Source: an uncultured bacterium (GTDB taxonomy: Bacteria; Methylomirabilota; Methylomirabilia; Rokubacteriales; DASRDR01). Taken from it: a stretch of 38,458 nucleotides of DNA. Both the position numbers and the translations under genes were made by a program. The DNA lies in contig CAZDYT010000001.1 in the NCBI GenBank assembly GCA_964509395.1, forward strand, positions 1 through 38,458, given 5' to 3'. The notes beneath the pieces were generated by a model. The model ran no database searches. It saw only the letters and a program-made list of their open reading frames with translations, and was not told the DNA's origin. Below are positions 2 through 37,453 of the stretch, in pieces (position 1 is the first letter of the stretch; each line of letters starts with the position of its first letter).

Positions 2-790
2 GTGGCTCTTCTGGAGGCGTTGCGAGCCCGCTCGGACTGGGACGTGCTTTCGCTCCGAAAGCTTCCGGGGGACTCGGCGACGCTGCAGGCGCTCGAGGCG
101 GCCCTTCCCGGTCGGCTGCTGTGGCGGGTGGCCGGCCGTGAGCAGTCGCCGTACGTAGAGATCGCCGGAACCTGGGGAGACTTCTTCCGCCACAAAACCC
201 AACGCTTCAGGAAGACCTGCCGAAATATCGAGAACCGACTCGGAAAGAGCGGGATGGTGGCGGTAGAGGAGTACCGCGAGGTTGACCCGGAGGGACCGGT
301 TTTTGCCGAGGTCATGGAAGTCTCGCGGCAAAGCTGGAAGGGCCCGCGGGGAGTGGGCATGGCGACGATGCTCGGGATGCCCAGGTTTTTCCGGGAGCTC
401 ACACAGCGTGCTAGCGCGAACGGCTGGCTGCATCTCTGGATCCTTCGGCTGGACGGGCGCGCCGTGGCCACCGAGTACCAGATCCGGTCCAACGGCCGGC
501 TGCACGCGTTGCGTGCTGATTTCGATGCCGCGCTTGCGAGCCTTTCGCCCGGAGCCGTCCTGAATCTCCGGATCATGCAATCCATCTTTGATCGGCGCGA
601 CGTGGGCGAGTACGACATGGGCCCGGGGGGCAATACGTACAAGCTCCGGTGGGCGACCGGTGCGCGGGAGTCCGTCTGGCTTGAGGTGTACGCTGCCACG
701 CCGTACGGGCGCTTTCTCCACTCAATCGAGACTCGGCTGATTCCGCTCCTGCGGCGGTGGCGGGCTCGCGCGAGAGCGGCATGCGTCTAA
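2..790 (+). CDS. FemAB/CelD-like GNAT-fold transferase, C-terminal part (5' end lies outside the window)
   Basis: The frame is open from the window edge, so there is no true start. The C-terminal region (LRADFD...SPGAVLNLRIMQ...EYDMGPGGNTYKLRWAT) resembles BioF2-like/FemAB-type acetyltransferase C-termini. It parallels the FDFGG...YAFKRRWGG end of the FemAB-like CDS at 32801. Stop TAA 788-790 overlaps the next gene's start. Confidence 0.7.
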   Translation: MALLEALRARSDWDVLSLRKLPGDSATLQALEAALPGRLLWRVAGREQSPYVEIAGTWGDFFRHKTQRFRKTCRNIENRLGKSGMVAVEEYREVDPEGPVFAEVMEVSRQSWKGPRGVGMATMLGMPRFFRELTQRASANGWLHLWILRLDGRAVATEYQIRSNGRLHALRADFDAALASLSPGAVLNLRIMQSIFDRRDVGEYDMGPGGNTYKLRWATGARESVWLEVYAATPYGRFLHSIETRLIPLLRRWRARARAACV

Positions 791-2637
791 TCGGCGGTGT
801 CGTCTTCCGCGATCCCGCACGACCGGCGCCGGACTCTCTCTTGCAAGCTATGGCGCGCCGGATTGCCGGCGTGCGGCAGCCGGTGTGCGCCAGTCGAGGG
901 CATGTCGGGTTCTTCTCGTGCATCGAGCCAGGAGGTTTGGATTTGACGGAGCGGGTCTGGGCGCTCGCCGACCTGGATCTCACAAACCTGCCAGAACTGC
1001 ACGCCCTGGCCGCTCGTGGCGATGGCCGCTCGGACAGGCTCCTGACGACGCTCTATAGAACGTACGGCCCCGCCTTCATCGCGAGGCTCCGGGGGGCCTT
1101 TGCCCTGGCCCTCTGGGACCGTCGGTTCCATCGGCTTCTGCTGGCGGTCGACCGCTTCGGGGTCAAGCGGCTCTACTACGTGAGGACCCCGGAAGGCTTT
1201 ACCTTCGCATCCCGGCCGAGCCCCCTTCTCGCACTGCCAGAACTGTCGGCCGAAGTCGATCCCACGGCGGTGTACCAATACCTGAACTTCGGCTTCGTCC
1301 CCGCCCCCTACTCAGCCTTTGCCCGAGTTCGGCGGCTTCCGCCCGGCCACACCCTCGTGCTCCGGAACGCGGAGCCGACGATCGCGCGCTATTGGGATCT
1401 GGCGTATCCCGAACGGCCAGTCGGAGTCCGTGAGGCGGCCGCCGCGACATTTCGAATGGTCGAAGATGCGGTGGCCGTGTCCCTCCACGGAGCTGCGGCA
1501 AAGGAGACCGGCGCCTTCCTGAGCGGTGGGACCGACAGCAGCACTATCGTCGGTCTCATGACGAAGACAACCGGAGAGCGCGTCCACGCGTTCTCGATCG
1601 GCTTCCGGGAGCCTCGCTACAACGAGCTCCACTACGCCACGCTGACGGCCCGGCACTTTGCCGCGGCGCACGGGACCGCGATACTCACCCCGGAAAGGGC
1701 CCTGTCCACATTGCCGCGCCTCATTGAGGCGCATGACGAGCCGTTCGGAAACGACTCGTCGGTCGCGACGTATGCGTGCGCGCAACTGGCTCGCGACCGC
1801 GGGATGACTCGGTTGCTGGGTGGGGACGGGGGTGATGAGCTGTTCGGGGGCAACGAGCGTTACCGGACGGATCGGATCCTTGTGGCGTACCAGCGGATTC
1901 CCGGCGGGCTCCGGCGTTCAATTCTCGAGCCACTGTTAGCCTGGCTCCCCGATGGGGACGCTTCCCTGCTCGGCCGGGCTCAGCGCTATGTGCACCGGGC
2001 CAATCTCCCAACCCCCCGCCGGTTCTACTTCCATGAGTTCTTCATGGGCCAGGATGGCTTCCGGCTCCTCACGCCCGAGTTTGCCCGGATGGTGGATCGC
2101 GAGGCCCCCTGGAAGGTCGCCCAGCAGCATTTAGACTCGGCGCAAGCGACCAGTGAGCTGAACCGACTGCTCTACCTGGACTTGAAGTTGACCATCGGGG
2201 ACGGCGACCTCTTGAAGGTGACGCGCGCGGCCGAGCTCGCGGGAATTGATGTCCGGTTCCCCATGCTTGATCATTTGTTGGCGGAGTTCACCGGCACCCT
2301 GCCGGCGTGCTACAAAGTCAGGCGCTTCGAGAAGCGGTATCTCTTCAAACGCGCTTTCCGAAACCTCATACCCGCCGAAGTCCTCGCCAAACGCAAACAC
2401 GGTTTTGGCGTGCCCGTGAGCGCGTGGCTCAAGAGTGATCCCGGGTTCCGCCAGCTCCTTCGTGAGAGCCTGCTCTCACCGGGCGCCCACGTGCAGAAAT
2501 ATCTCCGGCAGGAGGGCATTCGCGACCTCGTGCGGCTACACGAAGCCGATGGCACACCATACTACGGAAGCCTCCTGTGGATACTGTTGATGCTCGAGCT
2601 CTGGCACCGTCAGCACGCGAATGGAGTGGGTGTCTGA
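781..2637 (+). CDS. Asparagine synthetase (AsnB)-family amidoligase with degenerate N-terminal glutaminase domain
   Basis: Track ORF 757..2637. The best start is ATG 781 (MRLIGGVVF), which aligns to MCGIAGV of the paralogs with Cys replaced by Arg and overlaps the upstream stop by 10 nt. PP-loop AFLSGGTDSSTIVG is present. C-terminal KHGFGVPVSAW and LLWILLMLELW are shared with the paralogs at 20701 and 24412. Confidence 0.85.
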   Translation: MRLIGGVVFRDPARPAPDSLLQAMARRIAGVRQPVCASRGHVGFFSCIEPGGLDLTERVWALADLDLTNLPELHALAARGDGRSDRLLTTLYRTYGPAFIARLRGAFALALWDRRFHRLLLAVDRFGVKRLYYVRTPEGFTFASRPSPLLALPELSAEVDPTAVYQYLNFGFVPAPYSAFARVRRLPPGHTLVLRNAEPTIARYWDLAYPERPVGVREAAAATFRMVEDAVAVSLHGAAAKETGAFLSGGTDSSTIVGLMTKTTGERVHAFSIGFREPRYNELHYATLTARHFAAAHGTAILTPERALSTLPRLIEAHDEPFGNDSSVATYACAQLARDRGMTRLLGGDGGDELFGGNERYRTDRILVAYQRIPGGLRRSILEPLLAWLPDGDASLLGRAQRYVHRANLPTPRRFYFHEFFMGQDGFRLLTPEFARMVDREAPWKVAQQHLDSAQATSELNRLLYLDLKLTIGDGDLLKVTRAAELAGIDVRFPMLDHLLAEFTGTLPACYKVRRFEKRYLFKRAFRNLIPAEVLAKRKHGFGVPVSAWLKSDPGFRQLLRESLLSPGAHVQKYLRQEGIRDLVRLHEADGTPYYGSLLWILLMLELWHRQHANGVGV

Positions 2638-3674
2638 TGAGAGGCCGGGCGCGAGCGACCATCGTTCGAGCTTTGGCCGCCGGACTCTACAAATCGGGAG
2701 CGGTCGGCGGCCTGTCGAGATTTTCAGACTATGCGGCTTTAGGAGGTCCGGGAGGATTGTCGTATCGCCGGTATCCGGCTTTCCCGATCCTCGTGTACCA
2801 CCGAGTCGATGATAATCGTGACCCATTCTTCCCGTCGGTCCCGACCGAGGTTTTCGAGCGGCAGATGCGCTTCGTCGCTCGCACCTACCGCGTGCTCATC
2901 TTGGAAGAACTGGTGGAGCGGATGCGCAGTGGCGGACTCCCGCGAAACGCTCTCGCGATCACTTTCGATGACGGCTATCGGGATGTCTTGACGCATGTCG
3001 CACCGATCCTGACGAAATACCGAGCGCCCGCCAGCGTGTTCCTCGCAACGGGCTTCATCGGTACCGCCGAGGTTCCGTGGTTCGATCGGCTCGCGATGGC
3101 GTTCAAGCTGACGAAGGCCACGTTCATCGCCACACCGTGGGGCGAAACGATGAGCCTGGCTAGTGACGGAGACCGAGTCCGCGGCCTTCAGCGAACGCTC
3201 GACGCGCTCAAGCGCCTTCAGGACGAAGAGCTGCGGCGCACTGTGGACGGGTTGCTCGAAAGTCTCGGGGTAACGGAGCAGCGGAACTTTAAGGGCCTCA
3301 TGCTCGGTTGGGACGATGTTCACGCTCTGATGGGGCTGGGGTTCGCCATCGGTGCCCACACGGTGAACCACCCGATCCTCTCGCGCGTCAGCCTCGAGCG
3401 GGTTCGGTCGGAGATCGAGGGCTCCCGCGCGATGATCGAGTCAGCGTGCGGCCACAGGCCTCGCGCTTTTGCCTACCCAAACGGGCAATCCGGAGACTAC
3501 ACCGCGGCAGTAGTGCGCCTGGTCCGCGAGGCGGGGTTCACGTGCGCGGTCAGCGCGCGCTTCGGCATCAACACTCGAAGGACATCGCCGTGGGAACTCC
3601 GGCGAGGGCAACCGTGGGAACATGACGTCCCGACTTTCGCGCTGAAGCTCGCGTGGTATCGGATGGCGCTGTAG
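2637..3674 (+). CDS. Polysaccharide deacetylase (NodB/CE4 family), of the type found in PEP-CTERM loci
   Basis: NodB motifs ITFDDGYRD and GAHTVNHP are present, along with FPILVYHRVDD. ATG 2637 overlaps the upstream TGA by 1 nt. An alternative in-frame start at 2577 would overlap the upstream CDS by 61 nt. Confidence 0.88.
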   Translation: MRGRARATIVRALAAGLYKSGAVGGLSRFSDYAALGGPGGLSYRRYPAFPILVYHRVDDNRDPFFPSVPTEVFERQMRFVARTYRVLILEELVERMRSGGLPRNALAITFDDGYRDVLTHVAPILTKYRAPASVFLATGFIGTAEVPWFDRLAMAFKLTKATFIATPWGETMSLASDGDRVRGLQRTLDALKRLQDEELRRTVDGLLESLGVTEQRNFKGLMLGWDDVHALMGLGFAIGAHTVNHPILSRVSLERVRSEIEGSRAMIESACGHRPRAFAYPNGQSGDYTAAVVRLVREAGFTCAVSARFGINTRRTSPWELRRGQPWEHDVPTFALKLAWYRMAL

Positions 3675-3683
3675 CGGGACCTG

Positions 3684-4724
3684 ATGAAACTCACGGACGA
3701 GACCGCTGTCATTCCTGAGCTCATCCGTCGCCACTTGGACATCTTCATGTGTCCGGTATGCGGTGGACGGTTGAAAGTGCCCGACGACCATTCGACGATG
3801 GAATGTGCAGCGTGCAAGCGTGTGTTCGCGTGCGATCAAGGCATTCCCTTGTTATTCTGGCCCACCGGCCGCAGTTCCAAGGCCGATGTGACAGATCTCG
3901 TGAAGGCCTTTTATGAGGAGACGCCCTTTCCTGGTTACGACGACTTGGACTCCCCGGAGAGCCTCCGAGCAAAGGCCGAGAATGGAGTCTTCGCTCGGCT
4001 CTTGAGCGGGCAGATCGCGCATGGCTCGAAGGTCCTCGAATGTGGTTGCGGCACGGGTCAGCTGAGCAATTTCCTTGGATTGACATGGGGACGAAGCGTC
4101 TTTGCCACAGATCTGTGCGTGAACTCTCTGAGGCTGGGCCACGCGTTCGAGGAGCAACATGGTCTTGAGAATGTCTGCTTCGTTCAGATGAACCTCTTCC
4201 GTCCAGTGTTTCGACCGGAGGTCTTTGATTTTGTGATCTGCAACGGTGTGTTGCACCACACCGCTGATCCCTTCGCCGGGTTCCAGGCTCTTTTGCCCTC
4301 TCTGAAGAAGGGCGGTTTCGTCGTCGTTGGACTCTATAACAGGTACGGGAGACTCACGACCGACATCCGACGCCTTATCTTTCGAGTGGCTGGGGATAGG
4401 CTGACGTCCCTCGATCCACGGCTGAGGACCGAGACCCTCAATGACGCGAGAAGGCGGGCTTGGTTCAGGGATCAGTATAAGCATCCGCATGAATCGAAGC
4501 ATACCTTTGGCGAGGTGCTGCGGTGGTTCGACCAGTCGAGCGTCGAATTCGTGAACAGCATACCGAAGTGCGTCGCAAGCGAGTCGTTTTCCCCCGGGGA
4601 GAGATTGTTCGAGCCAAACCCGCGAGGCACGGCCGTCGATCGGGCCATCGTGCAGGCCGCCATGCTTCTCACCGGGGGGCGAGAAGGTGGCTTTTTCACC
4701 ATGATCGGCCGGAAGAGGGCCTGA
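3684..4724 (+). CDS. Class I SAM-dependent methyltransferase with N-terminal Trm112-like zinc ribbon
   Basis: Two Cys pairs, CPVCGG...ECAACKRVFACDQGIPLLF, form a zinc-ribbon-like N-terminus. SAM motif I VLECGCGTGQLSNFL is followed by FDFVICNGVLHHT and GGFVVVGLYN. ATG 3684 lies 9 nt after the upstream TAG. Confidence 0.85.
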   Translation: MKLTDETAVIPELIRRHLDIFMCPVCGGRLKVPDDHSTMECAACKRVFACDQGIPLLFWPTGRSSKADVTDLVKAFYEETPFPGYDDLDSPESLRAKAENGVFARLLSGQIAHGSKVLECGCGTGQLSNFLGLTWGRSVFATDLCVNSLRLGHAFEEQHGLENVCFVQMNLFRPVFRPEVFDFVICNGVLHHTADPFAGFQALLPSLKKGGFVVVGLYNRYGRLTTDIRRLIFRVAGDRLTSLDPRLRTETLNDARRRAWFRDQYKHPHESKHTFGEVLRWFDQSSVEFVNSIPKCVASESFSPGERLFEPNPRGTAVDRAIVQAAMLLTGGREGGFFTMIGRKRA

Positions 4725-4744
4725 GGCGAAGGGAGAGATCCCCG

Positions 4745-4978
4745 ATGCGTGTGCTCAAGGTGATCTGGACTCGGTGGCAGGTGCTCGGCCGGAGGATTGC
4801 GGACCTTCAAGCGCGTGCGCTGCTGTTTGTCTTCTACTTCACGGTGTTCGGGCCATTCGCCCTGGGCGTGAAAGTGCTCGGTGACCCGCTGCGGCTGCAC
4901 CCCGGAGCGGCCAACGGCTGGGTGGCGCGGCCGGGTGCTGACGCGGACCCGCTGACGCTCGCGAGGAGGCAGTTCTAG
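4745..4978 (+). CDS. Small predicted membrane protein (77 aa), hypothetical
   Basis: ATG 4745 is preceded by AAGGGAGAG. There is one clear hydrophobic segment, ALLFVFYFTVFGPFALGVKVL. The 5' part of track ORF 4523..4978 overlaps the methyltransferase CDS and is Arg-rich alternative-frame noise. Stop TAG 4976-4978 sits 1 nt before the carbamoyltransferase ATG. Confidence 0.5.
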   Translation: MRVLKVIWTRWQVLGRRIADLQARALLFVFYFTVFGPFALGVKVLGDPLRLHPGAANGWVARPGADADPLTLARRQF

Positions 4979-4979
4979 C

Positions 4980-6755
4980 ATGAACATCATGGGGATCTCG
5001 TGCTTCTTTCACGATTCGGCTGCGGCCCTTCTCCGGGATGGCGAGATCGTCGCTGCGGCAGAGGAGGAACGCTTCACGCGGAAGAAACACGATTACAGGT
5101 ATCCGGCCAATGCGATCGAGTTTTGCTTGCGTGCAGGTCGGATTCGAGGCGAGGAGCTGGATCTGGTCGTCTTTTTCGAAAAACCATTCCTGAAGTTCGA
5201 GCGGATTCTGCAGTCCACGATGCAGACCTTCCCGAGGTCGCGGAAGGTGTTTCAGGAGTCGTTGGTTGCGTGGTTTACGGAGAAGCTCTGGATCAAGAGC
5301 CTCATCAAAGAAACGCTCCGTGTCCCGGAGTCCAAGATCCTGTTCAGCGACCACCACCTCTCGCACGCCGCGAGCGCCTTCTTTTGCTCGCCCTTTGAGG
5401 AGGCGGCGATCTTGACTGTAGACGGCGTCGGTGAATGGGCGACGGCGACGTATGGCACCGGTCGAGGAAGCGAGATCAAGATTTGCCGCGAGATTCGGTT
5501 CCCCCATTCCCTCGGCTTGCTATACAGCGCCTTCACAGCCTTTTTGGGGTTCGAGGTGAATGAAGGCGAGTACAAGGTGATGGGTATGGCGCCGTTTGGC
5601 GAACCCCGGTACGCGGACAAGGTGTGGAAGCTGATTGGTCAGGAGGCCGACGGCAGCTTCCACCTTAACATGGAGTACTTCTCGTTTCACCAATCGACCT
5701 ACGCGACGTACGACGACCGCTTCGTCGATGTGTTCGGGCCGCCGCGTGATCCGAAGGCCCACTTCTTCACACCCTCGAGCGGGTACCCGTCCTACTTTGG
5801 CGAGAAGCCGGCCGCCTACGACCGCCTGGCTCGGGAGAACCAGCGCTATGCGGATATCGCCGCGAGCATTCAGGCGGTCACCGAAGAGGTGCTGCTGAAG
5901 ATGGCCTGCCACCTACATCGGGAAACAGGCCTGAAGCACCTCTGCATGGCAGGTGGTGTGGCCCTCAACAGCGTGGCAAACGGCCGGATCCTCAGGGAGA
6001 CAGCGTTCGAGGAGATCTTCATCCAGCCCGCTGCGGGAGATGGCGGTGGCGCTGTCGGCGCGGCGCTGTACGGCTATCACATGGTCCTGGGGAAGCCACG
6101 CCAGTTTGTCATGCGTCACGCCTGCTGGGGACAGGAGTACAGCGCCGGCGAAATCGACGCGTTTCTGCGCAGCCAGAATATCGCGCACACGCGCGTCGAG
6201 AATGATGATGCACTGCTCGGGCGCGTCGTGGACGCGCTTCAGCGGGGCAAGGTCGTTGGATGGTTTCAGGGACGGTTTGAATGGGGACCGCGCGCGCTCG
6301 GGAACCGCAGCATCCTCGCGGATCCGCGCGACCCGGCGATGAAGGACATCGTCAACACGAAGATCAAGTTTCGCGAGCCATTCCGACCCTTCGCGCCCTC
6401 GGTACTTATGGAGCGGGCGGCGGACTTCTTCGACTTGGCGGAGCCGGCGCGGCACTATCCCGCGCGGTACATGCTTTACGTCGTGGGCGTAAAGGACGGG
6501 GCGCGAGATCGCGTGCCAGCCATCACCCACGTGGACGGGTCGGCACGACTTCAAACCGTGGACCGCGAGACCGCACCACGCTACCACCGGTTGATTCAGA
6601 CGTTTGGCGAGGCCACGGGGGTTCCGGTCGTGCTGAACACGTCCTTCAATCTGAAGGGAGAGCCGATCGTCAACTCGCCGGCGGAGGCGTTCAGCACGTT
6701 CAGCCGAAGCGGCATGGACGTCCTGGTCCTCGGCCAACACATCATCGAGAAATAG
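4980..6755 (+). CDS. Carbamoyltransferase, NodU/CmcH family
   Basis: N-terminus MNIMGISCFFHDSAAALLRDGEIVAAAEEERFTRKKHD, plus SDHHLSHAASAF, CMAGGVALNSVANG and a C-terminal NTSFNLKGEPIV. These are typical of NodU/CmcH O-carbamoyltransferases. GAGGAGG lies about 9 nt upstream of the ATG. Confidence 0.93.
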   Translation: MNIMGISCFFHDSAAALLRDGEIVAAAEEERFTRKKHDYRYPANAIEFCLRAGRIRGEELDLVVFFEKPFLKFERILQSTMQTFPRSRKVFQESLVAWFTEKLWIKSLIKETLRVPESKILFSDHHLSHAASAFFCSPFEEAAILTVDGVGEWATATYGTGRGSEIKICREIRFPHSLGLLYSAFTAFLGFEVNEGEYKVMGMAPFGEPRYADKVWKLIGQEADGSFHLNMEYFSFHQSTYATYDDRFVDVFGPPRDPKAHFFTPSSGYPSYFGEKPAAYDRLARENQRYADIAASIQAVTEEVLLKMACHLHRETGLKHLCMAGGVALNSVANGRILRETAFEEIFIQPAAGDGGGAVGAALYGYHMVLGKPRQFVMRHACWGQEYSAGEIDAFLRSQNIAHTRVENDDALLGRVVDALQRGKVVGWFQGRFEWGPRALGNRSILADPRDPAMKDIVNTKIKFREPFRPFAPSVLMERAADFFDLAEPARHYPARYMLYVVGVKDGARDRVPAITHVDGSARLQTVDRETAPRYHRLIQTFGEATGVPVVLNTSFNLKGEPIVNSPAEAFSTFSRSGMDVLVLGQHIIEK

Positions 6756-6945: not shown

Positions 6946-8136
6946 ATGGGAGTGGAAACAGCCTGGCGGCCGCGTCCGATAACGAGGATCGGGGGGCCAA
7001 CGTATTCGCTCCGCGCAAAGCTGTGGCTCGCGTCAGTGAGCATCGGGCTAACGGCGGCGGTGATGGTCACCGTCGGCGAAGCCTATCTGAGGCTGACTCG
7101 AAGCCACGCGAGCCCCGACACCCACCGGGCCAAGTCACTCGAATACGAGGCGACGCTCTTCGCGCGTCACGCCTTTCCCCGAATGGTGCAGAAGAAGCGA
7201 GCGACCCCGAGCGGCTACGTCGAAATCAGCGAACGCGGCTATCGCGGTCGGTCTTTCGAGGTGCCGAAGCCGCCCGGGGTGATCCGTCTTGTGGTCCTCG
7301 GTGGTTCGGCAGCCTTCGACATGTACGCCAAGGAGGGACGAGATTGGCCCCACCTGATAGAAGAGTACCTGCGGGCTCAAGGGCACACGAATGTTGAAGT
7401 CATCAATGCTGGCACCCCCGGGCACGCCACGTTCGATTCTCTGGGACGTCTCTACTCGGAGCTCTGGACGTTCGAGCCGGACTATGTCCTGGTGTACCAC
7501 GCCTGGAACGACATCAAGTACTTTCACCGGCTCGACTCGCAGACCACGTTACTGCGGACTCAGCGCCCGGCCATGGTGACCAACGATGGCGGGCGCCCCA
7601 TGGTCTCGAACCCGTTCATTTACTATTGGGGGCCAGCGGATCGCCTGCTGAGTTACTCCGAGCTGTACGTGCGGCTCCGGTCGCAGTACCTGTTTTGGCG
7701 CATCGGCAAGCCTGGGTCGGAGGGCGTAGTAACCGACGTCAACACCTACGCCAGCACGTATTCCGCCTACGGGCCCCGCCAGTACGGGCTGAACTTGCAC
7801 CTCATCATGTCTGCCGCTAGGCATATCAGGGCCAGAGGAATCCTCGCGACCCAGGCGCGACTGGTGACGCAGTCAAACACTCCGGCCGAGAAGGAGAAGA
7901 TCGCGTACGAGTTAGTAGAGTTGTCCCCTGAGGCGCTTCTTCGCGCCTTCGAGGATTCTGACCGCGCCATCTTCAAGGTGGCGCAGGCTAACGACGTGCC
8001 AGTACTTGATCTGTCGGGTATATTCACTGGCCGCAGCGAGCTCTTCGAGGATCATGTCCACACGACAGCAGCAGGAAGCGAGGCGCTGGCTCGAGCGACG
8101 GCTGAGTTTCTGCGACCGATGATTGGCAGGAGATGA
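6946..8136 (+). CDS. Membrane-anchored SGNH/GDSL-family hydrolase or esterase
   Basis: N-terminal TM segment LWLASVSIGLTAAVMVTVG. SGNH blocks read VVLGGSAAFD (I, Ser), INAGTPGH (II), VYHAWNDI (III, Asn) and DHVHTT (V, DxxH). Confidence 0.75.
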   Translation: MGVETAWRPRPITRIGGPTYSLRAKLWLASVSIGLTAAVMVTVGEAYLRLTRSHASPDTHRAKSLEYEATLFARHAFPRMVQKKRATPSGYVEISERGYRGRSFEVPKPPGVIRLVVLGGSAAFDMYAKEGRDWPHLIEEYLRAQGHTNVEVINAGTPGHATFDSLGRLYSELWTFEPDYVLVYHAWNDIKYFHRLDSQTTLLRTQRPAMVTNDGGRPMVSNPFIYYWGPADRLLSYSELYVRLRSQYLFWRIGKPGSEGVVTDVNTYASTYSAYGPRQYGLNLHLIMSAARHIRARGILATQARLVTQSNTPAEKEKIAYELVELSPEALLRAFEDSDRAIFKVAQANDVPVLDLSGIFTGRSELFEDHVHTTAAGSEALARATAEFLRPMIGRR

Positions 8137-9575
8137 CGATGGCACTTCTCACGCCGTGGCTGTGGGCGTTTGCGTTGGGATGTGTTGCCTTGGGTACACT
8201 CCTTAACGAGTCGTTCAACCCTGCGGTGTTGAACCGGTACTCGCTTCCGTGGGTGGCCGTGATCCTGGCGAGCGTCCTGAGTTTCGCAGTGGCGACTGCC
8301 CTGGCCGCTCGGCAGAGTCTGGCGGGTTCGAGGGCCCTCGATGCCGGGGATCTCAGTGGCGCTAGATATCGATTTCTTTTCGGCACCGCCGCCGCAGGCT
8401 GGGGGGCGAGCCTGTTGACGCAGTACCGCGTCGATCCATTTCACGTGAGGCGGTTGTTTGTCGGTGAGTTCTTTGGCGCCACGCAGACAGCTGGGGTTCT
8501 CCTGGAGTATCTGGCTCAGGTCTCTCTGGGCCTGGCGATGCTCCACTTTCTCATCAGCCGGGCGTTCAATGCCAAGGCTCGTGGAGCGTACCGAGTAGCC
8601 GGGGGACTTGTGATCGTGGCGTCCATAGCGGCTACGTATCTCATCGCCGAAGGTGCCACCCGGGTCGCTAACATCGTTTGGCTCCAGCCCCAGGGCGAGC
8701 CGACGAAACCCACGAGAATGTGGCATGTGCGATATGAAGCGCCCAACAGCTTGGGCTTCCGGGGCGGAGAGTTCGAACAGCGGACGCAACCTGACGAGTT
8801 TCGGATCTTGGTGCTTGGAGACTCAATAACCTACGGCACCGGAGTGACCAACCCCGCCGATCGCTTTACTAGCGTTCTTGCCGAGCAACTGGGCCGGACC
8901 GGGCAGTTCCGCCACGCGAGGGTGTTCAACGCTGGCGTCAAAGGCACCCATTCCGTGGACCACCTGCAAACCCTGGGGCAACTCAGTTGGTTGCAGCCCG
9001 ATCTCGTGATCCTGGCTTATTACTTTAACGACATCGAGCACTTGGTTCCACTGCCGTTAGGAGATACGCCATTCGGAGCCCCCTCGTTCTGGAGCCGGTT
9101 TCGACTGCATCGTGTCCTGATGCTCAACTCGCATCTGTTTGATCAGCTACTTCTTCGTTACCGCCGAGCCAGGCGGATGAACCCTGAAGCTGCGCGTCCT
9201 GACCACTTCTTCGCGTCATACGCCAACCCAGATCTCCTGTCACGGCACCTTGACGTCCTCGAGGAGATCTTTGCGAAGGCGCAGTCCTTCGGTGCCGCTT
9301 TCCGCCTCGTTCCGTTCGACATCGCGGTTCGTCATGATGACCGTTACGAAGCACGCTACCAACGATTCGTCGAAGCCTGCCTCGGGCGGAGGATATCTGT
9401 GTGGCCTATGGGTCGTGTCTTTGATGGGTTTTCCTACTGGGATTTGCGGGTGAGTCGATGGGATGGTCACCCGAACGAGCAGGCCCATCACGTGGTCGGG
9501 AGATTCCTGGCGGAGCGCATCCTTGCGGAAGCCACCATGTTCAGGAGGGCCGGTGAAGCTCGACCGGCGTGGTGA
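8133..9575 (+). CDS. Polytopic membrane domain fused to an SGNH/GDSL-family hydrolase domain
   Basis: ATGA overlap with the upstream stop. About 5 hydrophobic segments occupy the first ~190 aa. SGNH blocks follow: ILVLGDSITYGTG (I), FNAGVKGT (II), ILAYYFNDI (III) and WDGHPNEQAH (V). Confidence 0.75.
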   Translation: MTMALLTPWLWAFALGCVALGTLLNESFNPAVLNRYSLPWVAVILASVLSFAVATALAARQSLAGSRALDAGDLSGARYRFLFGTAAAGWGASLLTQYRVDPFHVRRLFVGEFFGATQTAGVLLEYLAQVSLGLAMLHFLISRAFNAKARGAYRVAGGLVIVASIAATYLIAEGATRVANIVWLQPQGEPTKPTRMWHVRYEAPNSLGFRGGEFEQRTQPDEFRILVLGDSITYGTGVTNPADRFTSVLAEQLGRTGQFRHARVFNAGVKGTHSVDHLQTLGQLSWLQPDLVILAYYFNDIEHLVPLPLGDTPFGAPSFWSRFRLHRVLMLNSHLFDQLLLRYRRARRMNPEAARPDHFFASYANPDLLSRHLDVLEEIFAKAQSFGAAFRLVPFDIAVRHDDRYEARYQRFVEACLGRRISVWPMGRVFDGFSYWDLRVSRWDGHPNEQAHHVVGRFLAERILAEATMFRRAGEARPAW

Positions 9576-15336: not shown

Positions 15337-15845
15337 GAATCGGCCGGGACAGGACGACAATCGCTCACTCGTTCATCCTTGCTGGAGCGTGTGTTCTGGT
15401 AGCGGCATCCCAGATCGCATTCGCCGCGCCGCCTTTGGGAGGAGTCAGGGACATCGGTGGGGGAGTCAGCACGGACCCCGTCGTGATCGCGGGGCAGGTT
15501 CGCTCAGCTGTCCGGCTGGGTAAGTTCGCGGTTGGGCAGCTTGCGGGCCCAGACGCCCTCGAGAGCTTCAATCAGACACACGGGGTTATGAGCGAGATGT
15601 ACGCCCAAGTCAGGCTGGCAGTCACGGGGATGTACTGGGCGAAGCAGTACGCCAGGTTTCCGGATCCTCTCCTGGACTATGAATCGAAGAGAACGCATGA
15701 GGCGTGGGTACAGATCAGAGGCGTCGTGGACAGGCATATCCGCGGTGACTCGCCGGTGATCTCGCCGGGACAGATCCCCGCGGCCATTCACGACCTGAAT
15801 TCGGCCATAGCGATTCTCGAGCAAGTATTGGAGCTGATGCCTTGA
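15333..15845 (+). CDS. Small secreted hypothetical protein (~170 aa)
   Basis: GTG 15333 overlaps the upstream TGA (GTGA). The signal-peptide-like N-terminus is VRIGRDRTTIAHSFILAGACVLVAASQIAFA/APP. The upstream part of track ORF 15087..15845 overlaps the GT4 CDS and is treated as alternative-frame noise. I recognised no family motif. Confidence 0.5.
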   Translation: MRIGRDRTTIAHSFILAGACVLVAASQIAFAAPPLGGVRDIGGGVSTDPVVIAGQVRSAVRLGKFAVGQLAGPDALESFNQTHGVMSEMYAQVRLAVTGMYWAKQYARFPDPLLDYESKRTHEAWVQIRGVVDRHIRGDSPVISPGQIPAAIHDLNSAIAILEQVLELMP

Positions 15846-17170
15846 ATGCTCTGCGACTTCGCTGGGCCGTGGCCAGCGCTTTCATCCTAGCCACGATCGC
15901 GACGCTCCTCGGCGGCACGGTGGGCAGTGGCCTGCTCGGGGGGAGCCTCCTCGATGGCACCTTGAGCGCCGACCCCTGGGGCTGGGCGTCGAATCCGGTC
16001 ATTGCGGCCGACGACGGTGGAACGCTGTATGCGGCGTGGGCGCAGCACCGGCGGCCCGGTATCTGGGAACTTTCCGCGATCTACGTCAAGAAATGGGCGA
16101 ACGGGCAGTGGGAGCAACTCGGCGGCAGGATCGGACACGCCCGGGGCCATGCGGGGGCGGGCGCCACCTGGCCAAGCGCCTACGCGCCCTCCATCGCTCT
16201 CCTCGGCAAGGCACCCTACGTGGCGTGGTACGAGGGTGGAGGGTATGGCTGGGGAACTCTTAGGGGCGTTCATTTCGGCTCCTCCGCCTTTGTGGCCCAC
16301 TGGGATGGCGCGAGGTGGGTCGAGGATCCAAATACCGAACAGTTGAATGGAGCCCTGAATACGGACGTCGGCTTGAAGGAAACCGGGTATATCCCATCCG
16401 CTCGCCGTCCGAAGCTTGCCGTCGTCAGTGGCCGTCTCTATGCGGCGTGGATCGAGACGCGCGTCATGCCCGGCTCCGGTGTGAGCTACAACGTATTGGT
16501 CGTCAAACACTTGCAGGACGGCCGTTGGGTCCAGGACGGGAAAGATCTATGGGAGAGCCGGCAGGTGGGCGATGCGACGATCATCGATCTCGCGATCGCC
16601 GACCTCGGAGGTGAGCCGTGGATCGCCTGGTCGGAGTCCAAGCGCAGGGCAGGGTACCGTCCGGCGGCTGTCCGGGTCGCCAGGCTTTCCCTGGGCGATT
16701 GGGTCACCGTCGGGGATCGTCTCAATGTCTCGCCCCGAGGGTACGCAAACTATCTCGCGATGGCTGGACTTGCCGGCCGTGCCTATGTGGCTTGGCAGGA
16801 GCGCCCGAGTAGCGGGAATAACCGGATTTATGTCAAGCACTGGGACGGGAGCCGGTGGGTGGCTCATGGCGACGCTTTGAACGCGGATCCAGACGCTGGG
16901 GAAGCCGGCCGCGCGGCGCTCGTCGGCGACGAGGGGGGCCTGTGGCTGACGTGGCCCGAGGGCCGTCCCGGACAGCGGGCCAAGCTTTACGTAAGGTCCT
17001 TCGGCAGCACCGGCTGGAGCGCGCCGCTTGCGGTCCCGCTCAGGGATTCGGAAAGTGGCGCGGCGGACACGCCCGCGCTAGCAATAAGCCGCCGGACGCC
17101 ATACGTCATCTGGGCGGAAAAGAGCCCGCCGCCAGCTACCAAGCAGATCTACGTGAGGGCGCTCCCATGA
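15842..17170 (+). CDS. Secreted or anchored repeat protein, predicted 6-7 bladed beta-propeller (hypothetical)
   Basis: TTG 15842 overlaps the upstream TGA. The N-terminus MNALRLRWAVASAFILATIATLLGG is hydrophobic. Seven ~50-60 aa repeats centre on an aromatic-x-x-W motif: LYAAW, PYVAW, LYAAW, PWIAW, AYVAW, LWLTW, PYVIW. Each is followed by a second strand ending in W (YVKKWANGQW, VAHWDGARW, VKHLQDGRW, YVKHWDGSRW). Confidence 0.65.
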   Translation: MNALRLRWAVASAFILATIATLLGGTVGSGLLGGSLLDGTLSADPWGWASNPVIAADDGGTLYAAWAQHRRPGIWELSAIYVKKWANGQWEQLGGRIGHARGHAGAGATWPSAYAPSIALLGKAPYVAWYEGGGYGWGTLRGVHFGSSAFVAHWDGARWVEDPNTEQLNGALNTDVGLKETGYIPSARRPKLAVVSGRLYAAWIETRVMPGSGVSYNVLVVKHLQDGRWVQDGKDLWESRQVGDATIIDLAIADLGGEPWIAWSESKRRAGYRPAAVRVARLSLGDWVTVGDRLNVSPRGYANYLAMAGLAGRAYVAWQERPSSGNNRIYVKHWDGSRWVAHGDALNADPDAGEAGRAALVGDEGGLWLTWPEGRPGQRAKLYVRSFGSTGWSAPLAVPLRDSESGAADTPALAISRRTPYVIWAEKSPPPATKQIYVRALP

Positions 17171-19374
17171 CCGATCGGGCAGCTAGCGCCGCACGTACGC
17201 TCGCCGTCGCCTGTCTGGCCCTTACTTTGTCTGGCACCCAAACGCGACTGGAAGCTCGAGAATTGCCGCCCAATATCTGGGTCAATCTACGGGCCGGAGG
17301 CGTGGCTACGGGTAACGGCATCGGGGACGAAGGCTACAACTCCTTTGTCTACACCCCCGCCCTCAGGAAGGCACTGGTCTTTGGGCAATACCATGCGATT
17401 AGCGTGAGCGATGGGGAGGACCAGAACGCCCTGCTGGCCTACGATTTCGCTCTGAATCGGTGGGAGCTCCTCGAGGTCACCGAGGCCGCTTGGAGCGAGT
17501 TCCTTCCGGGTGTGGGCCATGATCAGGGCAACGTCGCGGTTGACACCTTACACGATCTTTACATCACCAAGGGCAACCAGACGCTGCACGGCAACACCGC
17601 CCACACGACGTACGTATACGATCTCAAGGCGGGACGCGGAAAGCGAATGATGCCACCCGTGGAGCCATACATCGGCGAGTCGGCGGCGAGCGCCTTTGAT
17701 CCGGATCACGATCTCGTCCTGACGACTAAGGGGCCTTCCTGGCTTTACGACCACAATGCCAACGTGTGGACGGAGGTCCCCAACAGTCCCTCGCACCGTA
17801 TGTCTCCGGGACTTGTTTACGACACGAAGCAGCGGGTCTTCGTCATGTTTGGGGGCAGTGACTCGAGCGAAACGTGGAGCTTCGATGCCGGTACGCGGGT
17901 CTGGACGAAGCGAAATCCTCCTGTGTCTCCTCCAGGAAGGACTGCGCCAAACGTGGCCTTCGACAGCGTGAATGGTGTGGCCCTGCTGGTAGGAGGGCAC
18001 GGGAAGGGCGGTGTCGAGCTGTCGGACGTGTGGGTGTACGAGACAGCCCTCAACCGTTGGAGCGAGTTGCCAGTCTCCGCGCCGCCGGGGATCAATCCCG
18101 GGGCCGGCAACAACCTGACGTACGACTCACACCACCAGGTGTTCCTTCTCAAGAGCACCACGGACCTGCGCGACGTTTGGGCATTCAAGTATGTGCCCTC
18201 CCGGGTTGGACAATCGCTTCGGGCCGGCAACGGGACGCTCACCAACGACAGGCCTTGGCCAACACCGCCGCCCGTAATTCTTCCACTTGGCTTTGAATCG
18301 CCGGCAACTGCCGCTTCCCTGCCGATTGGCCCAGTCGACCTCCCGCTCAGAACATGGGTGGCCCGGCGCCTTCCGCCACATGGTAAGGGCCCGCAGGCGG
18401 GGAAGCACATGCGGCTCGCGCACAACCCAGTCAACGGCCGTCTGTATCTCCTCGGCGGCGACTACGCGGGCCTCATCGGCTACGACTCCGGACGCAACGA
18501 GGTCTACTCCTACTCGGTCGCGGATGACACGTGGGTGCTGGAATATCCGTATTGCGGGCCGCCCGGCTCGGTCCAGCCCAGCCATCCTGACGAGGTCGGC
18601 TGGGTGTACGACACTCTACGCCACATTTTCTGGGTGATCCCCGGCTATATGTCGGCGGCTGCGGAGGACCCGTGCCCGCAGAATCTCGTGCTCGATCGCA
18701 TCATGACATTCGATCCGATCACGAAGCAGTGGGCGGTTCCCAATCGCACGATGAGCCATCTTAACGGCGGCGTGAAGTTCGCGGTCTATGATCCCGTGAC
18801 GGACGCCATCATCCGGTTCATCGGGAGCGGCATCCAACACTACGCCATCGCGAGCAACAGGGAGTCAGTGTACCTGTACGACAACGTCCTCCAAGAGGCC
18901 AGACTCACGGAGGAGTACGGCGCGATCGATCCCGTCGGGAGGGTGATCTACGTCATCGAGCCGGTGCAGGGCCGGCTCTATCGCTACTGGATCGACCAGC
19001 GCCGGCTGGAGTTCGTCGTCAACACTCCGGTGAGCAACCCGGTCCCGCCCGGCGGCGCCGATGACTACTGGCCATGGAACAGCGCCATGCCCATCTGGGA
19101 TTCGATCAACGGGGTCCTTCTCTGGCCCCGGATTCGGGATTTCTCGACCGCGAACATCACCCTCTACATCTACCACCCGGATACGGGACAGTGGGAAAAG
19201 GACGCGATGGTGCAGCCGAACGGGCTGCCCGTCCGGGGGAACACGGCCGTCTTCGACCCGGATCAGAACGTCTTGATGGTGTTGGGTGGGACGTACCCAA
19301 GGAACGAGTATCTGTTTCTGTACCGCTACGGAGCCGGCCCGGCAAGGTCCCGGACTGGCGCCGCACGGCCTTAG
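17167..19374 (+). CDS. Secreted Kelch-repeat protein with two predicted propeller domains
   Basis: ATGA overlap at 17167. Signal-like N-terminus MTDRAASAARTLAVACLALTLSG. Kelch-like blades are visible in VFVMFGGSDS..TWSFD, ALLVGGHGKGGVELSDVWVYE..NRWSEL, LYLLGGDYAG and VLMVLGGTYP. A Pro-rich linker (PWPTPPPVILPLGF) separates the two halves. The 5' part of track ORF 16855..19374 is alternative-frame overlap. Confidence 0.75.
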   Translation: MTDRAASAARTLAVACLALTLSGTQTRLEARELPPNIWVNLRAGGVATGNGIGDEGYNSFVYTPALRKALVFGQYHAISVSDGEDQNALLAYDFALNRWELLEVTEAAWSEFLPGVGHDQGNVAVDTLHDLYITKGNQTLHGNTAHTTYVYDLKAGRGKRMMPPVEPYIGESAASAFDPDHDLVLTTKGPSWLYDHNANVWTEVPNSPSHRMSPGLVYDTKQRVFVMFGGSDSSETWSFDAGTRVWTKRNPPVSPPGRTAPNVAFDSVNGVALLVGGHGKGGVELSDVWVYETALNRWSELPVSAPPGINPGAGNNLTYDSHHQVFLLKSTTDLRDVWAFKYVPSRVGQSLRAGNGTLTNDRPWPTPPPVILPLGFESPATAASLPIGPVDLPLRTWVARRLPPHGKGPQAGKHMRLAHNPVNGRLYLLGGDYAGLIGYDSGRNEVYSYSVADDTWVLEYPYCGPPGSVQPSHPDEVGWVYDTLRHIFWVIPGYMSAAAEDPCPQNLVLDRIMTFDPITKQWAVPNRTMSHLNGGVKFAVYDPVTDAIIRFIGSGIQHYAIASNRESVYLYDNVLQEARLTEEYGAIDPVGRVIYVIEPVQGRLYRYWIDQRRLEFVVNTPVSNPVPPGGADDYWPWNSAMPIWDSINGVLLWPRIRDFSTANITLYIYHPDTGQWEKDAMVQPNGLPVRGNTAVFDPDQNVLMVLGGTYPRNEYLFLYRYGAGPARSRTGAARP

Positions 19375-28240: not shown

Positions 28241-29486
28241 GGTGACCGTGCGAGTCCTCGTACTGAGCTCGGTCTTTCCGAATCCGAGACAGCCGGCTCT
28301 GGGGGTGTTCATCCGGCAGCGCGCGCGGCTGGTGGCCCGCCACTGCGAGCTCAGGGTGGTGGCGCCGATACCCTGGTTCCCGCTCAACGGCCTGATCCGC
28401 GGCCCTCACGTGACAGGGGTTCCGGCGTTCGAGATGCAGCAGGGCCTCTCTGTGTATCATCCCCGGTTCTTCTGCGTTCCCCGGTATCTCAAGTGGCTCG
28501 ACGCGCTGCTCTACGCAGGCTCACTCCTTGCCTTCGTGGTTCGCCTCCGCCGGGAGTTTCCGTTCGATCTGATCGACGCCCACTTCGTGTATCCGGATGG
28601 GGCGGCCGCCGTCATGTTGGGCAAGGTGCTTCGCATCCCGGTCCTCATAACGGTGCGCGGGAGCATCGTCCGGCTCTCAGGCTACCCCCTTCATCGTCCC
28701 CAGATCGGCTGGGCACTTCGGCGGGCCAGCGGCATTGTGGCGGTCAGCCAGTCACTCAAACACGTCGCGATGCAGCTGGAGATCCCAGCACACGAGATTC
28801 GCGTGATTCCCAATGGCGTGGACACCAAGCAATTTCATCCCTCGGACCGTGCCGCGGCTCGAGCGGCGTGCGGGCTTGCGGTCGACCGAACGATCCTCCT
28901 CGCCGTCGGCGGGATCTACGATGGCAAGGGACACCACCTTGTCGTAGACGCGCTTGCGGGTCTTGTCACTCGCCACCCCAACCTACTCTACGTCATCGTT
29001 GGTGCAGAGCGCCCGGGGGACAGCTACCGAAGGAATCTCGAACGGATGATTGCGGCCCGCGGTCTCGTGGAGCATGTTTTCATCGCCGGCCCGCGCCCTC
29101 ATGACGAGCTCCCCCGGTGGTATGCGGCAGCTGATCTCTTCTGCCTGGCGACGCGCTCGGAAGGGTGGGCGAATGTTCTGCTCGAGGCCATGGCCAGCGG
29201 AGTTCCTGTGGTGACGACAGACGCAGGCGGGAATGCCGAGATCGTGCGCGACGGGCGTGACGGGCTCCTCGTCCGATTCGGCGACGCGCGCGGGCTGGCC
29301 TCGGCCATCGAGGAGGCACTGGGCCGGCAGTGGGACCGTGACGCCACGGTCGCCTACGCCCGGGGCTTGAGCTGGGAGCGCGCTGCAGAGACTGTGCTCG
29401 AGGAGTTCCGGCGTCTCGTGCCCGTAGCCCCGAGCGAGGTTCGCGTGGGGCAGGCCATCGACTACTCACCCCGAAACAACGCATGA
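28233..29486 (+). CDS. Glycosyltransferase family 4
   Basis: VRVLVLSSVFPNP N-terminus. The start is uncertain among TTG 28233, GTG 28242 and GTG 28248. GT4 motif GWANVLLEAMASGVPVVTTDAGGNAEIV is present. Confidence 0.85.
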   Translation: MHEVTVRVLVLSSVFPNPRQPALGVFIRQRARLVARHCELRVVAPIPWFPLNGLIRGPHVTGVPAFEMQQGLSVYHPRFFCVPRYLKWLDALLYAGSLLAFVVRLRREFPFDLIDAHFVYPDGAAAVMLGKVLRIPVLITVRGSIVRLSGYPLHRPQIGWALRRASGIVAVSQSLKHVAMQLEIPAHEIRVIPNGVDTKQFHPSDRAAARAACGLAVDRTILLAVGGIYDGKGHHLVVDALAGLVTRHPNLLYVIVGAERPGDSYRRNLERMIAARGLVEHVFIAGPRPHDELPRWYAAADLFCLATRSEGWANVLLEAMASGVPVVTTDAGGNAEIVRDGRDGLLVRFGDARGLASAIEEALGRQWDRDATVAYARGLSWERAAETVLEEFRRLVPVAPSEVRVGQAIDYSPRNNA

Positions 29487-37432: not shown

Positions 37433-37453
37433 GGCGAGAGCGTGCACGGGGAG

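Follow-up and report, generated by a model that had tools for sequence, protein, structure and literature searches.

Cys-less asparagine-synthetase-like proteins as candidate glutamine-independent amide synthetases of exopolysaccharide tailoring

Introduction

What reaction could an asparagine-synthetase-like enzyme perform once its glutaminase nucleophile is gone, and in a locus that already encodes two intact enzymes of the same type? This question is raised by a 38,458-nt stretch of DNA (hereafter, the window) from an uncultured bacterium of the Rokubacteriales (Methylomirabilota; GenBank assembly GCA_964509395.1, contig CAZDYT010000001.1, forward strand). The open reading frame (ORF) at positions 781-2637 encodes a Cys-less asparagine-synthetase-like protein, and we use the label AsnB* for this protein and its relatives. 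An initial annotation, made from the sequence alone, had described it as an AsnB paralog that lost the nucleophile of class II amidotransferases but kept the adenylating PP-loop. It had further proposed that the gene forms a substrate-linked trio with its two neighbors.

The window is an exosortase/PEP-CTERM exopolysaccharide locus. In soil and wastewater bacteria, such systems are responsible for the formation of flocs and biofilms.

Loss of the glutaminase site

The AsnB* gene starts with an ATG at position 781 and ends with a TGA stop (2635-2637), and its product of 618 aa begins with MRLIGGV (Table 1). With 618 codons and an Asn_synthase match of E 4.7e-74, this is a genuine gene and chance is of no concern. 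Its sole in-frame upstream start is a GTG at position 757, which would yield MAGSRESG-MRLIGG and adds no Cys. An alternative start or a frameshift generating an MC N-terminus is ruled out, since the upstream frame is Cys-free and lies inside the neighboring GNAT gene and since the orthologs begin with M-x-L-I-G-G. The initial annotation was thus correct in seeing no upstream start that yields MC.

Residue equivalences with E. coli asparagine synthetase B (AS-B) were drawn from a three-way alignment, from a 122-sequence MAFFT alignment including E. coli AsnB (from NC_000913) and from an hhalign profile-profile alignment of the AsnB* family against canonical sequences (probability 100, E 5e-116), and all three agree. 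The column of AS-B Cys1 is occupied by Arg2, as had been read by eye, and AsnB* therefore lacks the nucleophile of class II glutamine amidotransferases. The canonical HRGPD is replaced by GVRQP, HRRLSIIDL (which carries R49) corresponds to a 9-residue deletion, N74-G75-E76...N79 reads D64-L65-D66...N69 (the DLDLTN motif) and D98 is replaced by S84. None of the glutamine-binding and oxyanion residues of AS-B (R49, N74, G75 and D98) is present. With Cys1 and these four residues missing and HRRLSIIDL deleted, AsnB* is predicted to be no longer able to act as a glutamine-dependent amidotransferase.

The former active site has nevertheless kept a pattern of its own. Among 119 relatives of AsnB*, the columns of R49 and D98 are variable, but N74 is replaced by Asp in 111 of the 119, E76 is replaced by Asp in 111 as well and N79 is retained in 116. 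The glutaminase landmarks had been considered unrecognizable; the canonical motifs are indeed gone, but the site itself is remodeled, with a near-invariant D-x-D-x-x-N present in 111 of the 119 relatives.

Profile searches were also conducted. The GATase_7 profile scores 58.3 bits on AsnB* (25-bit cutoff) and covers only residues 72-150, which correspond to profile positions 37-122, whereas the two intact paralogs of the window match the whole profile (171.5 and 164.5 bits). Similarly, AsnB* remains below the cutoff of TIGR01536 (asparagine synthase, glutamine-hydrolyzing; 249.7 vs. 267.1 bits), while the paralogs pass it (519 and 515 bits). The best NCBIfam model for AsnB* is TIGR03108 (XrtA/PEP-CTERM system amidotransferase) with 335 bits relative to a cutoff of 816.9, and this match begins only at residue 72. 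Taken with the MAFFT and hhalign alignments, these Pfam and NCBIfam results rule out a shifted alignment that would rescue the glutaminase residues: in the profile comparison that the initial annotation had called for, these residues are absent rather than displaced.

The four-layer fold of the N-terminal nucleophile (Ntn) domain is retained. The blocks of this domain present a pLDDT of at least 81 (mostly at least 89) in the AF2 model, Foldseek also matches the Ntn domains of PurF and GlmS, and the interface motifs LRGxFAxAxWD and DxFGxKxLYY are found in the AsnB* family.

Conservation of the synthetase domain

The second half of the protein presents the opposite pattern. The PF00733 profile scores 250.6 bits on AsnB*, relative to a gathering threshold of 21. 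In the PP-loop SGGTDSS, the S, G, G, D and S positions are invariant in all 119 relatives and Thr occupies the x position in 118. Residues G348, D349, D352, E353, K479, R482 and K539 (the last one being the equivalent of AS-B K449) are likewise invariant across the 119 relatives and are common to the canonical paralogs. Overall, the AsnB* family and the canonical paralogs have 64 invariant positions of the synthetase domain in common, and only five positions strongly discriminate them.

Mean pairwise identity within the family is 0.28 over residues 1-60, 0.55 over residues 61-150 and 0.65-0.69 over the synthetase core. It follows from these regional differences that residues 1-60 are under relaxed constraint and the remainder of the protein, including D-x-D-x-x-N, under purifying selection. 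The claim that the adenylating half was kept is well borne out, with SGGTDSS and the ATP-site residues invariant and under strong purifying selection.

The AF2 model, computed with the family alignment as input, reached a pLDDT of 94.9 and a pTM of 0.94. When this model was compared to the PDB with Foldseek, the best match was the hydroxyamidotransferase TsnB9 (7YLZ; E 2e-29; TMq 0.76). The E. coli and human asparagine synthetases presented a TMq of ~0.6, and beta-lactam synthetase and carbapenam synthetase a TMq of 0.56-0.58 (E 1e-18 to 1e-20); together with AS-B, the latter two span a TMq of 0.56-0.61. According to this model, AsnB* has the AsnB fold and consists of two domains, the Ntn domain being vestigial. 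A vestigial Ntn domain associated with an active PP-loop domain is also the architecture of beta-lactam synthetase and carbapenam synthetase.

Distribution and evolution of the AsnB* family

Our homolog search identified the 119 full-length relatives, which present 53-65% identity to AsnB*; those with a named organism are metagenome-assembled genomes (MAGs) of Rokubacteria/Methylomirabilota. None of them starts with MC and most start with M-x-L-[IL]-G-G; in all, the Cys-less state extends to more than 119 orthologs. These relatives are labeled "asparagine synthase-related protein", "asparagine synthetase B family protein" or "asparagine synthase (glutamine-hydrolysing)".

We then scanned 1.84 billion representatives of 50%-identity clusters with HMMER and considered the best 150 matches (319-770 bits). 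A non-canonical N-domain was found in 146 of these 150 representatives, all of them without the R49 segment and N74. The canonical MCGI...HRGPD...RRLSIIDL...NGEIYN was found in the other four (P0201, P0251, P0262 and P0269). Beyond the 119 relatives, a degenerate glutaminase domain is thus present in about 140 clusters (50% identity) of other phyla. In addition, genomes were scanned for FLSGGTDSS and GDGGDEIF, which yielded 80 loci spanning Methylomirabilota, Acidobacteriota, Actinomycetota, Desulfobacterales and many Beta- and Gammaproteobacteria, including isolates of Massilia, Janthinobacterium, Duganella, Denitromonas and Methylibium. In all 80 loci the protein was closer in score to AsnB* than to the intact paralog, and none started with MCG.

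A neighbor-joining tree based on the synthetase domain alone grouped 143 of 144 degenerate representatives in a single clade, with the six canonical bacterial sequences all outside it. Because one representative falls among the canonical ones and the bootstrap support for strict monophyly is weak (4/30), we claim only that the degenerate proteins form a near-exclusive clade. This clade, which is separate and large, seems to branch next to the WbpS-like amidotransferases. These results show that AsnB* belongs to an old and widespread family, Cys-less or degenerate throughout, and is not the outcome of a local decay event. The description of AsnB* as a paralog that lost its nucleophile stands for the loss itself; the decay did not occur in this locus but is the state of the whole family. 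Recent pseudogenization is ruled out by the 53-65% identity maintained across the family with invariant catalytic residues.

A literature search for Cys-less AsnB proteins in exopolysaccharide or O-antigen loci returned nothing specific, and the clade was not described there. Papers on the exopolysaccharides of Rubrivivax and Thauera list three "asparagine synthase (wbpS)" genes per cluster; Rubrivivax RGS1_10423 and Thauera tmz1t_3247 bear the name "putative asparagine synthase".

Several relatives differ at their N-terminus. Many of the distant ones (33-45% identity; Proteobacteria, Acidobacteriota, Actinomycetota and Planctomycetota) begin with M-x-G-[LIMVF]-C-G-W, such as those of loci L013, L025, L031, L042 and L062 and representatives P0153, P0159, P0163, P0176, P0183, P0200 and P0227. 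They lack R49, N74 and D98 and present, after a conserved 4-residue leader, a Cys at the nucleophile position. Where this Cys is preceded by Phe, the Phe codon cannot be an alternative start, and the leader thus looks real; it could be a processed propeptide, or the Cys could be a relic. Among the close family members, a Rokubacteria subclade (P0042, P0058, P0062, P0065, P0080, P0084, P0085 and P0086) possesses a Cys exactly at the Cys1 column (x-C-V-I-G-G) with D-x-D-x-x-N still present, mostly behind an N-terminal extension of 12-20 residues (only M-A in P0084). Finally, the AsnB* gene of one Rokubacteria MAG (MFD00962; locus L053, 5488-8133) is broken over several frames, which may be an assembly or sequencing artifact rather than a true pseudogene.

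Gene neighborhood and gene fusions

The AsnB* gene is tightly packed between its neighbors. Its ATG sits 10 nt within the upstream PF13480 GNAT ORF (GNAT stop at 788-790), and its stop has one base in common with the ATG of the downstream CE4 deacetylase (position 2637; TGATG). A scan for promoters and terminators detected no internal signals in the trio, which is merely compatible with an operon. The GNAT gene is cut by the window edge, and its full-length ortholog in locus L001 encodes 368 aa. The translation of the CE4 gene shows the metal-binding motifs TFDD and H-T-x-x-H as well as R-x-F-A-Y-P.

We examined this organization in 11 close loci (the window, L001, L003, L004, L006, L007, L008 and L086-L089). 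The CE4 gene was directly 3' of AsnB* in all 11 and the PF13480 GNAT gene was directly 5' in eight. The AsnB*-CE4 pair was also found in Bryobacteraceae, Terriglobales and Actinomycetota (L011, L012, L013 and L015), and in several Burkholderiales a CE4 gene adjoins AsnB* on the opposite strand. Moreover, the GNAT and AsnB* are fused in two Burkholderiaceae proteins: P0265 (1032 aa, ENA) and P0270 (1092 aa, NCBI TAK91068.1, from a Burkholderiaceae MAG). Each combines PF13480, a degenerate GATase_7 and Asn_synthase, with a domain order that is identical to the gene order. Residues 1-333 of P0265 match the GNAT of L001 (32% identity; E 4e-46) and residues 501-1014 match AsnB* of the window (34% identity; E 4e-89). 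These natural fusions are strong evidence that the GNAT and AsnB* would act on the same pathway intermediate. The notion of a substrate-linked trio is strengthened by both the synteny and the fusions.

The related loci also harbor, upstream, the canonical XrtA set: a UDP-sugar dehydrogenase, a TIGR03006 deacetylase (363 bits), WecB and a TIGR03019 FemAB protein (405 bits). This set indicates a uronic acid precursor of the N-acetylmannosaminuronic acid (ManNAcA) type. The GNAT of the trio has no TIGR03019 match and, by BLASTP, does not significantly resemble the TIGR03019 protein encoded in the same locus (E 0.65); an orthology with VimA/TIGR03019 is unsupported. The same holds for the orthology of the CE4 enzyme with TIGR03006 (BLASTP against the TIGR03006 protein of the same locus, E 0.022). 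The term FemAB-like, initially given to the upstream gene, is only loosely right: the gene encodes a PF13480 GNAT, but one without BLASTP similarity to the XrtA FemAB protein. The GNAT, AsnB* and CE4 genes thus constitute a second, unmodeled set beside the canonical XrtA set. More broadly, at least one exosortase-exopolysaccharide marker was found within 6 kb of AsnB* in 37 of the 80 loci, the most common being a DUF5935/Wzy_C ligase-like gene.

As a separate observation, a full-length GlmS gene (GATase and SIS, 612 aa) is located directly 3' of CE4 in five of the 11 close loci (L003 12876-14714; L086 7857-9695; L087 7874-9712; L088 7885-9723; L089 7923-9761). The corresponding position in the window is occupied by a Trm112-like/SAM methyltransferase (3684-4724) and a carbamoyltransferase.

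Comparison with known systems

The WbpS/WbqG/PGN_1234-type uronic-acid amidotransferases (TIGR03108) have a long insertion in the synthetase domain and C-terminal motifs in common with AsnB*. Their setting is also that of AsnB*, i.e., exopolysaccharide loci of the exosortase type that also encode CE4 deacetylases and Fem-like GNATs, and the window itself contains two bona fide members. However, AsnB* differs from WbpS-like proteins by its low TIGR03108 score and by the absence of Cys1, R49, N74, G75, D98 and HRRLSIIDL.

In the Wbp/Vim pathway, the AsnB-like WbpS makes a uronamide, the CE4 enzyme VimE takes off the 2-N-acetyl group, and Ser or Gly is added by the Fem-like VimA; this yields the aminoacylated uronamide sugar to which the sortase of the T9SS (type IX secretion system) attaches its cargo, and the authors remarked that the same gene set is found in exosortase loci (PMC7468200). 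This pathway of Bacteroidota and the trio of the window both co-encode an AsnB-like enzyme, a CE4 deacetylase and a PF13480-type GNAT. In contrast to AsnB*, WbpS is a canonical Cys-containing enzyme, and the GNAT and CE4 of the trio are not of the TIGR03019 and TIGR03006 types.

A non-Cys N-terminus in AsnB homologs is associated with ligases rather than amidotransferases, as in PdmN relative to FdmV, and PdmN-type homologs ligate a carboxylate to the amine of an amino acid and not to glutamine-derived ammonia (bioRxiv 10.1101/2025.10.30.685158). PdmN (pradimicin; Tln4/TlnF are also proposed) resembles AsnB*, by its description, in combining a non-Cys N-terminus with an intact adenylating domain. 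The two differ in that PdmN presents a Ser at its N-terminus while the whole pocket of AsnB* is remodeled, and in that PdmN-type substrates are aromatic polyketides while every neighbor of AsnB* belongs to polysaccharide machinery. Beta-lactam synthetase, carbapenam synthetase and McjC-type lasso cyclases also possess a Cys-less vestigial Ntn domain and an active PP-loop, and they couple an acyl-adenylate to an amine borne by the substrate; structural matches to this group have E values of 1e-16 to 1e-20. These enzymes perform intramolecular cyclizations of small molecules or peptides, whereas AsnB* is closer to TsnB9 and TIGR03108. AsnB* was rejected as a lasso-peptide or macrolactam cyclase (NF033535, 152 bits vs. 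525; NF033561, 75 bits vs. 300), its neighbors all being polysaccharide genes, and as an NAGGN amidotransferase, with a score far under the cutoff.

TsnB9 is the closest protein to AsnB* among solved structures and also by sequence (phmmer E 2e-29). The phmmer match covers residues 87-361 of AsnB* and, weakly, 479-542, which leaves the first 86 residues outside. TsnB9 moves hydroxylamine onto a polyketide carboxylate; its donor is glutamate gamma-hydroxamate and its N-terminal Cys is retained. More generally, asparagine-synthetase-like enzymes of natural-product pathways form lactams or transfer hydroxylamine or hydrazine.

Proposed function

On balance, we lean toward AsnB* being a glutamine-independent amide synthetase involved in exopolysaccharide tailoring, most likely an amine-ligating one. 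It is predicted to be a cytoplasmic, ATP-dependent, carboxylate-adenylating amide synthetase that operates without glutamine hydrolysis; since ATP is needed, its substrate would be a cytoplasmic sugar linked to a nucleotide or a lipid. Together with the GNAT (an acyl- or aminoacyl-transferase) and the CE4 N-deacetylase, it would form a three-enzyme sugar-tailoring module of an exosortase/PEP-CTERM exopolysaccharide pathway. We infer its catalytic activity, the identity of its carboxylate and nitrogen nucleophile and the order of the steps as follows. The CE4 enzyme would free the amine of a nucleotide- or lipid-linked amino sugar, probably a uronic acid of the ManNAcA or N-acetylglucosaminuronic acid (GlcNAcA) type, and the GNAT would re-acylate this amine. 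AsnB* would then adenylate a carboxylate, most parsimoniously the C6 carboxylate of the uronic acid, which WbpS-like ancestors amidated; alternatively, the carboxylate could be one installed by the GNAT. Finally, AsnB* would couple the carboxylate, once activated, to a nitrogen nucleophile of non-glutamine origin. Free ammonia is a less likely candidate for this nucleophile than a substrate amine, whether from an amino acid, an amino sugar or another amine, given the precedent of all the characterized Cys-less AsnB homologs known to us (PdmN, beta-lactam synthetase and lasso cyclases). The locus already holds two intact WbpS-like enzymes, which favors an amine-ligating reaction yielding an N-substituted amide: most plausibly, the third and conserved Cys-less paralog carries out different chemistry.

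Several points weigh against this amine-ligating proposal. The carboxylate and the nucleophile are guessed from the context, and many proteobacterial relatives lack an adjoining deacetylase or GNAT. The analogy with the Wbp/Vim pathway is architectural only, because the GNAT is not of the TIGR03019/VimA type by sequence, and the weak support for strict monophyly limits what the tree can say about the clade. Moreover, AS-B Cys1 mutants keep an ammonia-dependent activity and a plain NH3-dependent uronamide synthetase is conceivable.

We consider the ammonia-dependent reading, in which AsnB* makes a primary amide such as a uronamide from free cytoplasmic NH3/NH4+, to be rather unlikely but plausible. 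It agrees with the behavior of the AS-B mutants, with a synthetase site near-identical to that of the intact paralogs (the 64 common invariants and five strongly discriminating positions mentioned above) and with the retained N-domain fold and interface motifs. The two near-invariant acidic residues at the N74 and E76 positions also fit, as a D-x-D site within the former glutaminase pocket could bind ammonium and channel it along a retained tunnel. However, a third enzyme with a poorer nitrogen supply is hard to justify next to two intact glutamine-dependent paralogs, and the coupling to an amine-generating deacetylase better fits an amine nucleophile. In addition, we know of no natural Cys-less AsnB homolog that is a dedicated NH3-dependent amidase, the characterized ones using substrate amines. 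That same deacetylase coupling, and the fact that asparagine-synthetase-like enzymes are known lactam formers, could point instead to a cyclase closing the carboxylate onto an amine of the same molecule, either the sugar amine freed by the deacetylase or that of an amino acid added by the GNAT. This lactam-forming activity is improbable: the architecture is that of beta-lactam synthetase and CarA, with the TMq of 0.56-0.58 given above, but AsnB* is nearer to the intermolecular amidotransferases (TsnB9 and TIGR03108) in both sequence and structure and scores far under the cutoffs of the lasso and macrolactam cyclase models. To our knowledge, no such sugar lactam has been reported from exosortase-type exopolysaccharides.

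AsnB* could also be a non-catalytic partner, i.e., a scaffold, a regulator or a heterodimer subunit of an intact paralog. AS-B enzymes are dimeric, and an intact paralog is located directly upstream in L011, L012 and L015, directly downstream in L033 and within ~1 kb in L026, L044, L050 and L070. In L001, by contrast, the 10 kb to each side of the gene are free of intact paralogs, and a supply of ammonia in trans is structurally unlikely because the AS-B tunnel is intramolecular. A pseudoenzyme would further be expected to lose its ATP-site and catalytic residues, which are invariant in more than 119 orthologs, the synthetase domain being the most conserved part of the protein; we hold this role to be quite improbable. 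As for an artifact of annotation or sequence (a wrongly called start, a frameshift or a misassembly), its likelihood is negligible. Apart from the general possibility of such errors and the gene broken across frames in L053, the observations all point the other way: the in-frame upstream sequence is Cys-free and inside the GNAT gene, and more than 119 independent orthologs, which come from several sources, start likewise. A start-site error cannot explain the Cys-less state, because HRGPD, HRRLSIIDL and NGEIYN are missing too. The starts of the orthologs and the MAFFT and hhalign alignments refute this reading.

If AsnB* is indeed an amine-ligating tailoring enzyme, the "ligase-type" chemistry of AsnB homologs, so far found for antibiotics and lasso peptides, would extend to the tailoring of polysaccharides. 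The principle of Cys-less AsnB enzymes is already known; what appears to be new is such a family in polysaccharide loci, with a chemistry that we infer by analogy. AsnB* represents a family of AsnB-fold enzymes that is large, broad in its phylogeny and unannotated; its members are predicted to be incapable of using glutamine and probably create an unusual amide on a sugar of the secreted polysaccharide. The widespread misannotation of its members, for instance as "asparagine synthase (glutamine-hydrolysing)", is open to correction, and the GNAT, AsnB* and CE4 proteins offer a concrete three-enzyme module for in vitro reconstitution. As a long shot, this module may make a new amide-decorated sugar (an N-substituted uronamide or a second amide, with the D-x-D pocket binding the amine) that serves as the "linking sugar", the exosortase acceptor for PEP-CTERM proteins, just as the Wbp/Vim sugar does for T9SS. 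If the module made this acceptor, a 20-year-old question would become testable.

Other features of the exosortase locus

The exosortase, EpsI, PrsK and PrsR genes are found at the end of the window (Table 1). The window also contains a Wzy-like gene, a Wzm/Wzt ABC exporter, many glycosyltransferases, methyltransferases and a carbamoyltransferase. The exosortase passes the general model TIGR02602 but none of the subtype models (XrtA, 144 bits vs. 208; XrtW, 190 bits vs. 425). In this region, the listed 521-aa ORF at 35867-37432 is a chimera of frames whose real genes are the exosortase and EpsI, and a 555-aa minus-strand ORF (36692-38359) has no family match and looks spurious.

Table 1. Coordinates of AsnB*, its domains and motifs, and selected genes of the window.
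Feature	Position	Strand	Evidence and remarks
AsnB* coding sequence	781-2637	+	618-aa asparagine-synthetase fold without glutaminase nucleophile; ORF, Pfam, NCBIfam, AF2
Degenerate Ntn (class II glutaminase-like) domain	781-1395	+	Residues 1 to ~205; fold kept, catalytic residues gone; hhalign, family columns, pLDDT
DLDLTN motif in place of NGEIYN (AS-B N74-G75-E76...N79)	970-987	+	Translation
Asn_synthase (PP-loop ATP pyrophosphatase) domain	1474-2610	+	Residues 232-610; PF00733, E 4.7e-74
PP-loop SGGTDSS	1522-1542	+	Translation
GDGGDEL, equivalent of AS-B S346-G-E348-G-S-D351-E352	1822-1842	+	Translation
PF13480 (Acetyltransf_6) GNAT gene	2-790	+	Pfam E 1.3e-25; 5' end cut by window edge
CE4 polysaccharide deacetylase	2637-3674	+	PF01522, E 3.3e-24
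Intact paralog 1 (MCGIAGV), WbpS-like amidotransferase	20701-22572	+	GATase_7 171.5, TIGR03108 704, TIGR01536 519 bits
Intact paralog 2 (MCGIAGI), WbpS-like amidotransferase	24412-26328	+	GATase_7 164.5, TIGR03108 755 bits
Locus context block, PrsK to PrsR	33817-38458	+	NCBIfam models
PrsK	33817-35934	+	TIGR02916 433.7 bits, cutoff 300
Exosortase	35883-36791	+	TIGR02602 150.6 bits, cutoff 105.6
EpsI	36815-37432	+	TIGR02914 97.6 bits, cutoff 42.8
PrsR	37454-38458	+	TIGR02915 468 bits on truncated protein; cut by window end

Both intact paralogs score below the TIGR03108 cutoff (704 and 755 bits vs. 816.9) despite possessing all the canonical motifs and, as a consequence, the NCBI pipeline would probably name them generic asparagine synthases.

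A possible second tailoring block is located just 5' of prsK (29483-33820). It comprises a weak alpha/alpha-toroid (squalene-hopene-cyclase-C-like) protein (29483-30655), a PaaK/F390-synthetase-like adenylating enzyme (30637-32001), a formyltransferase-like protein (31809-32804) and a second FemAB/PF13480 protein (32801-33820) with a TIGR03019 score of only 37.9 bits.

A small ORF (~79-84 aa, no family) is conserved directly 5' of a NodU/CmcH-type carbamoyltransferase in the window (4724-6755), L001 (15271-17472) and L004 (2020-4221), and is followed in L001 and L004 by a DUF5989 mini-protein; the small ORF and the carbamoyltransferase suggest that the polysaccharide may be O-carbamoylated. 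Finally, the regions 6946-9575 and 15842-19374 of the window present two tandem GDSL/SGNH acylhydrolase-like genes and a 442-aa ORF without family match that overlaps the start of a Kelch-repeat protein.

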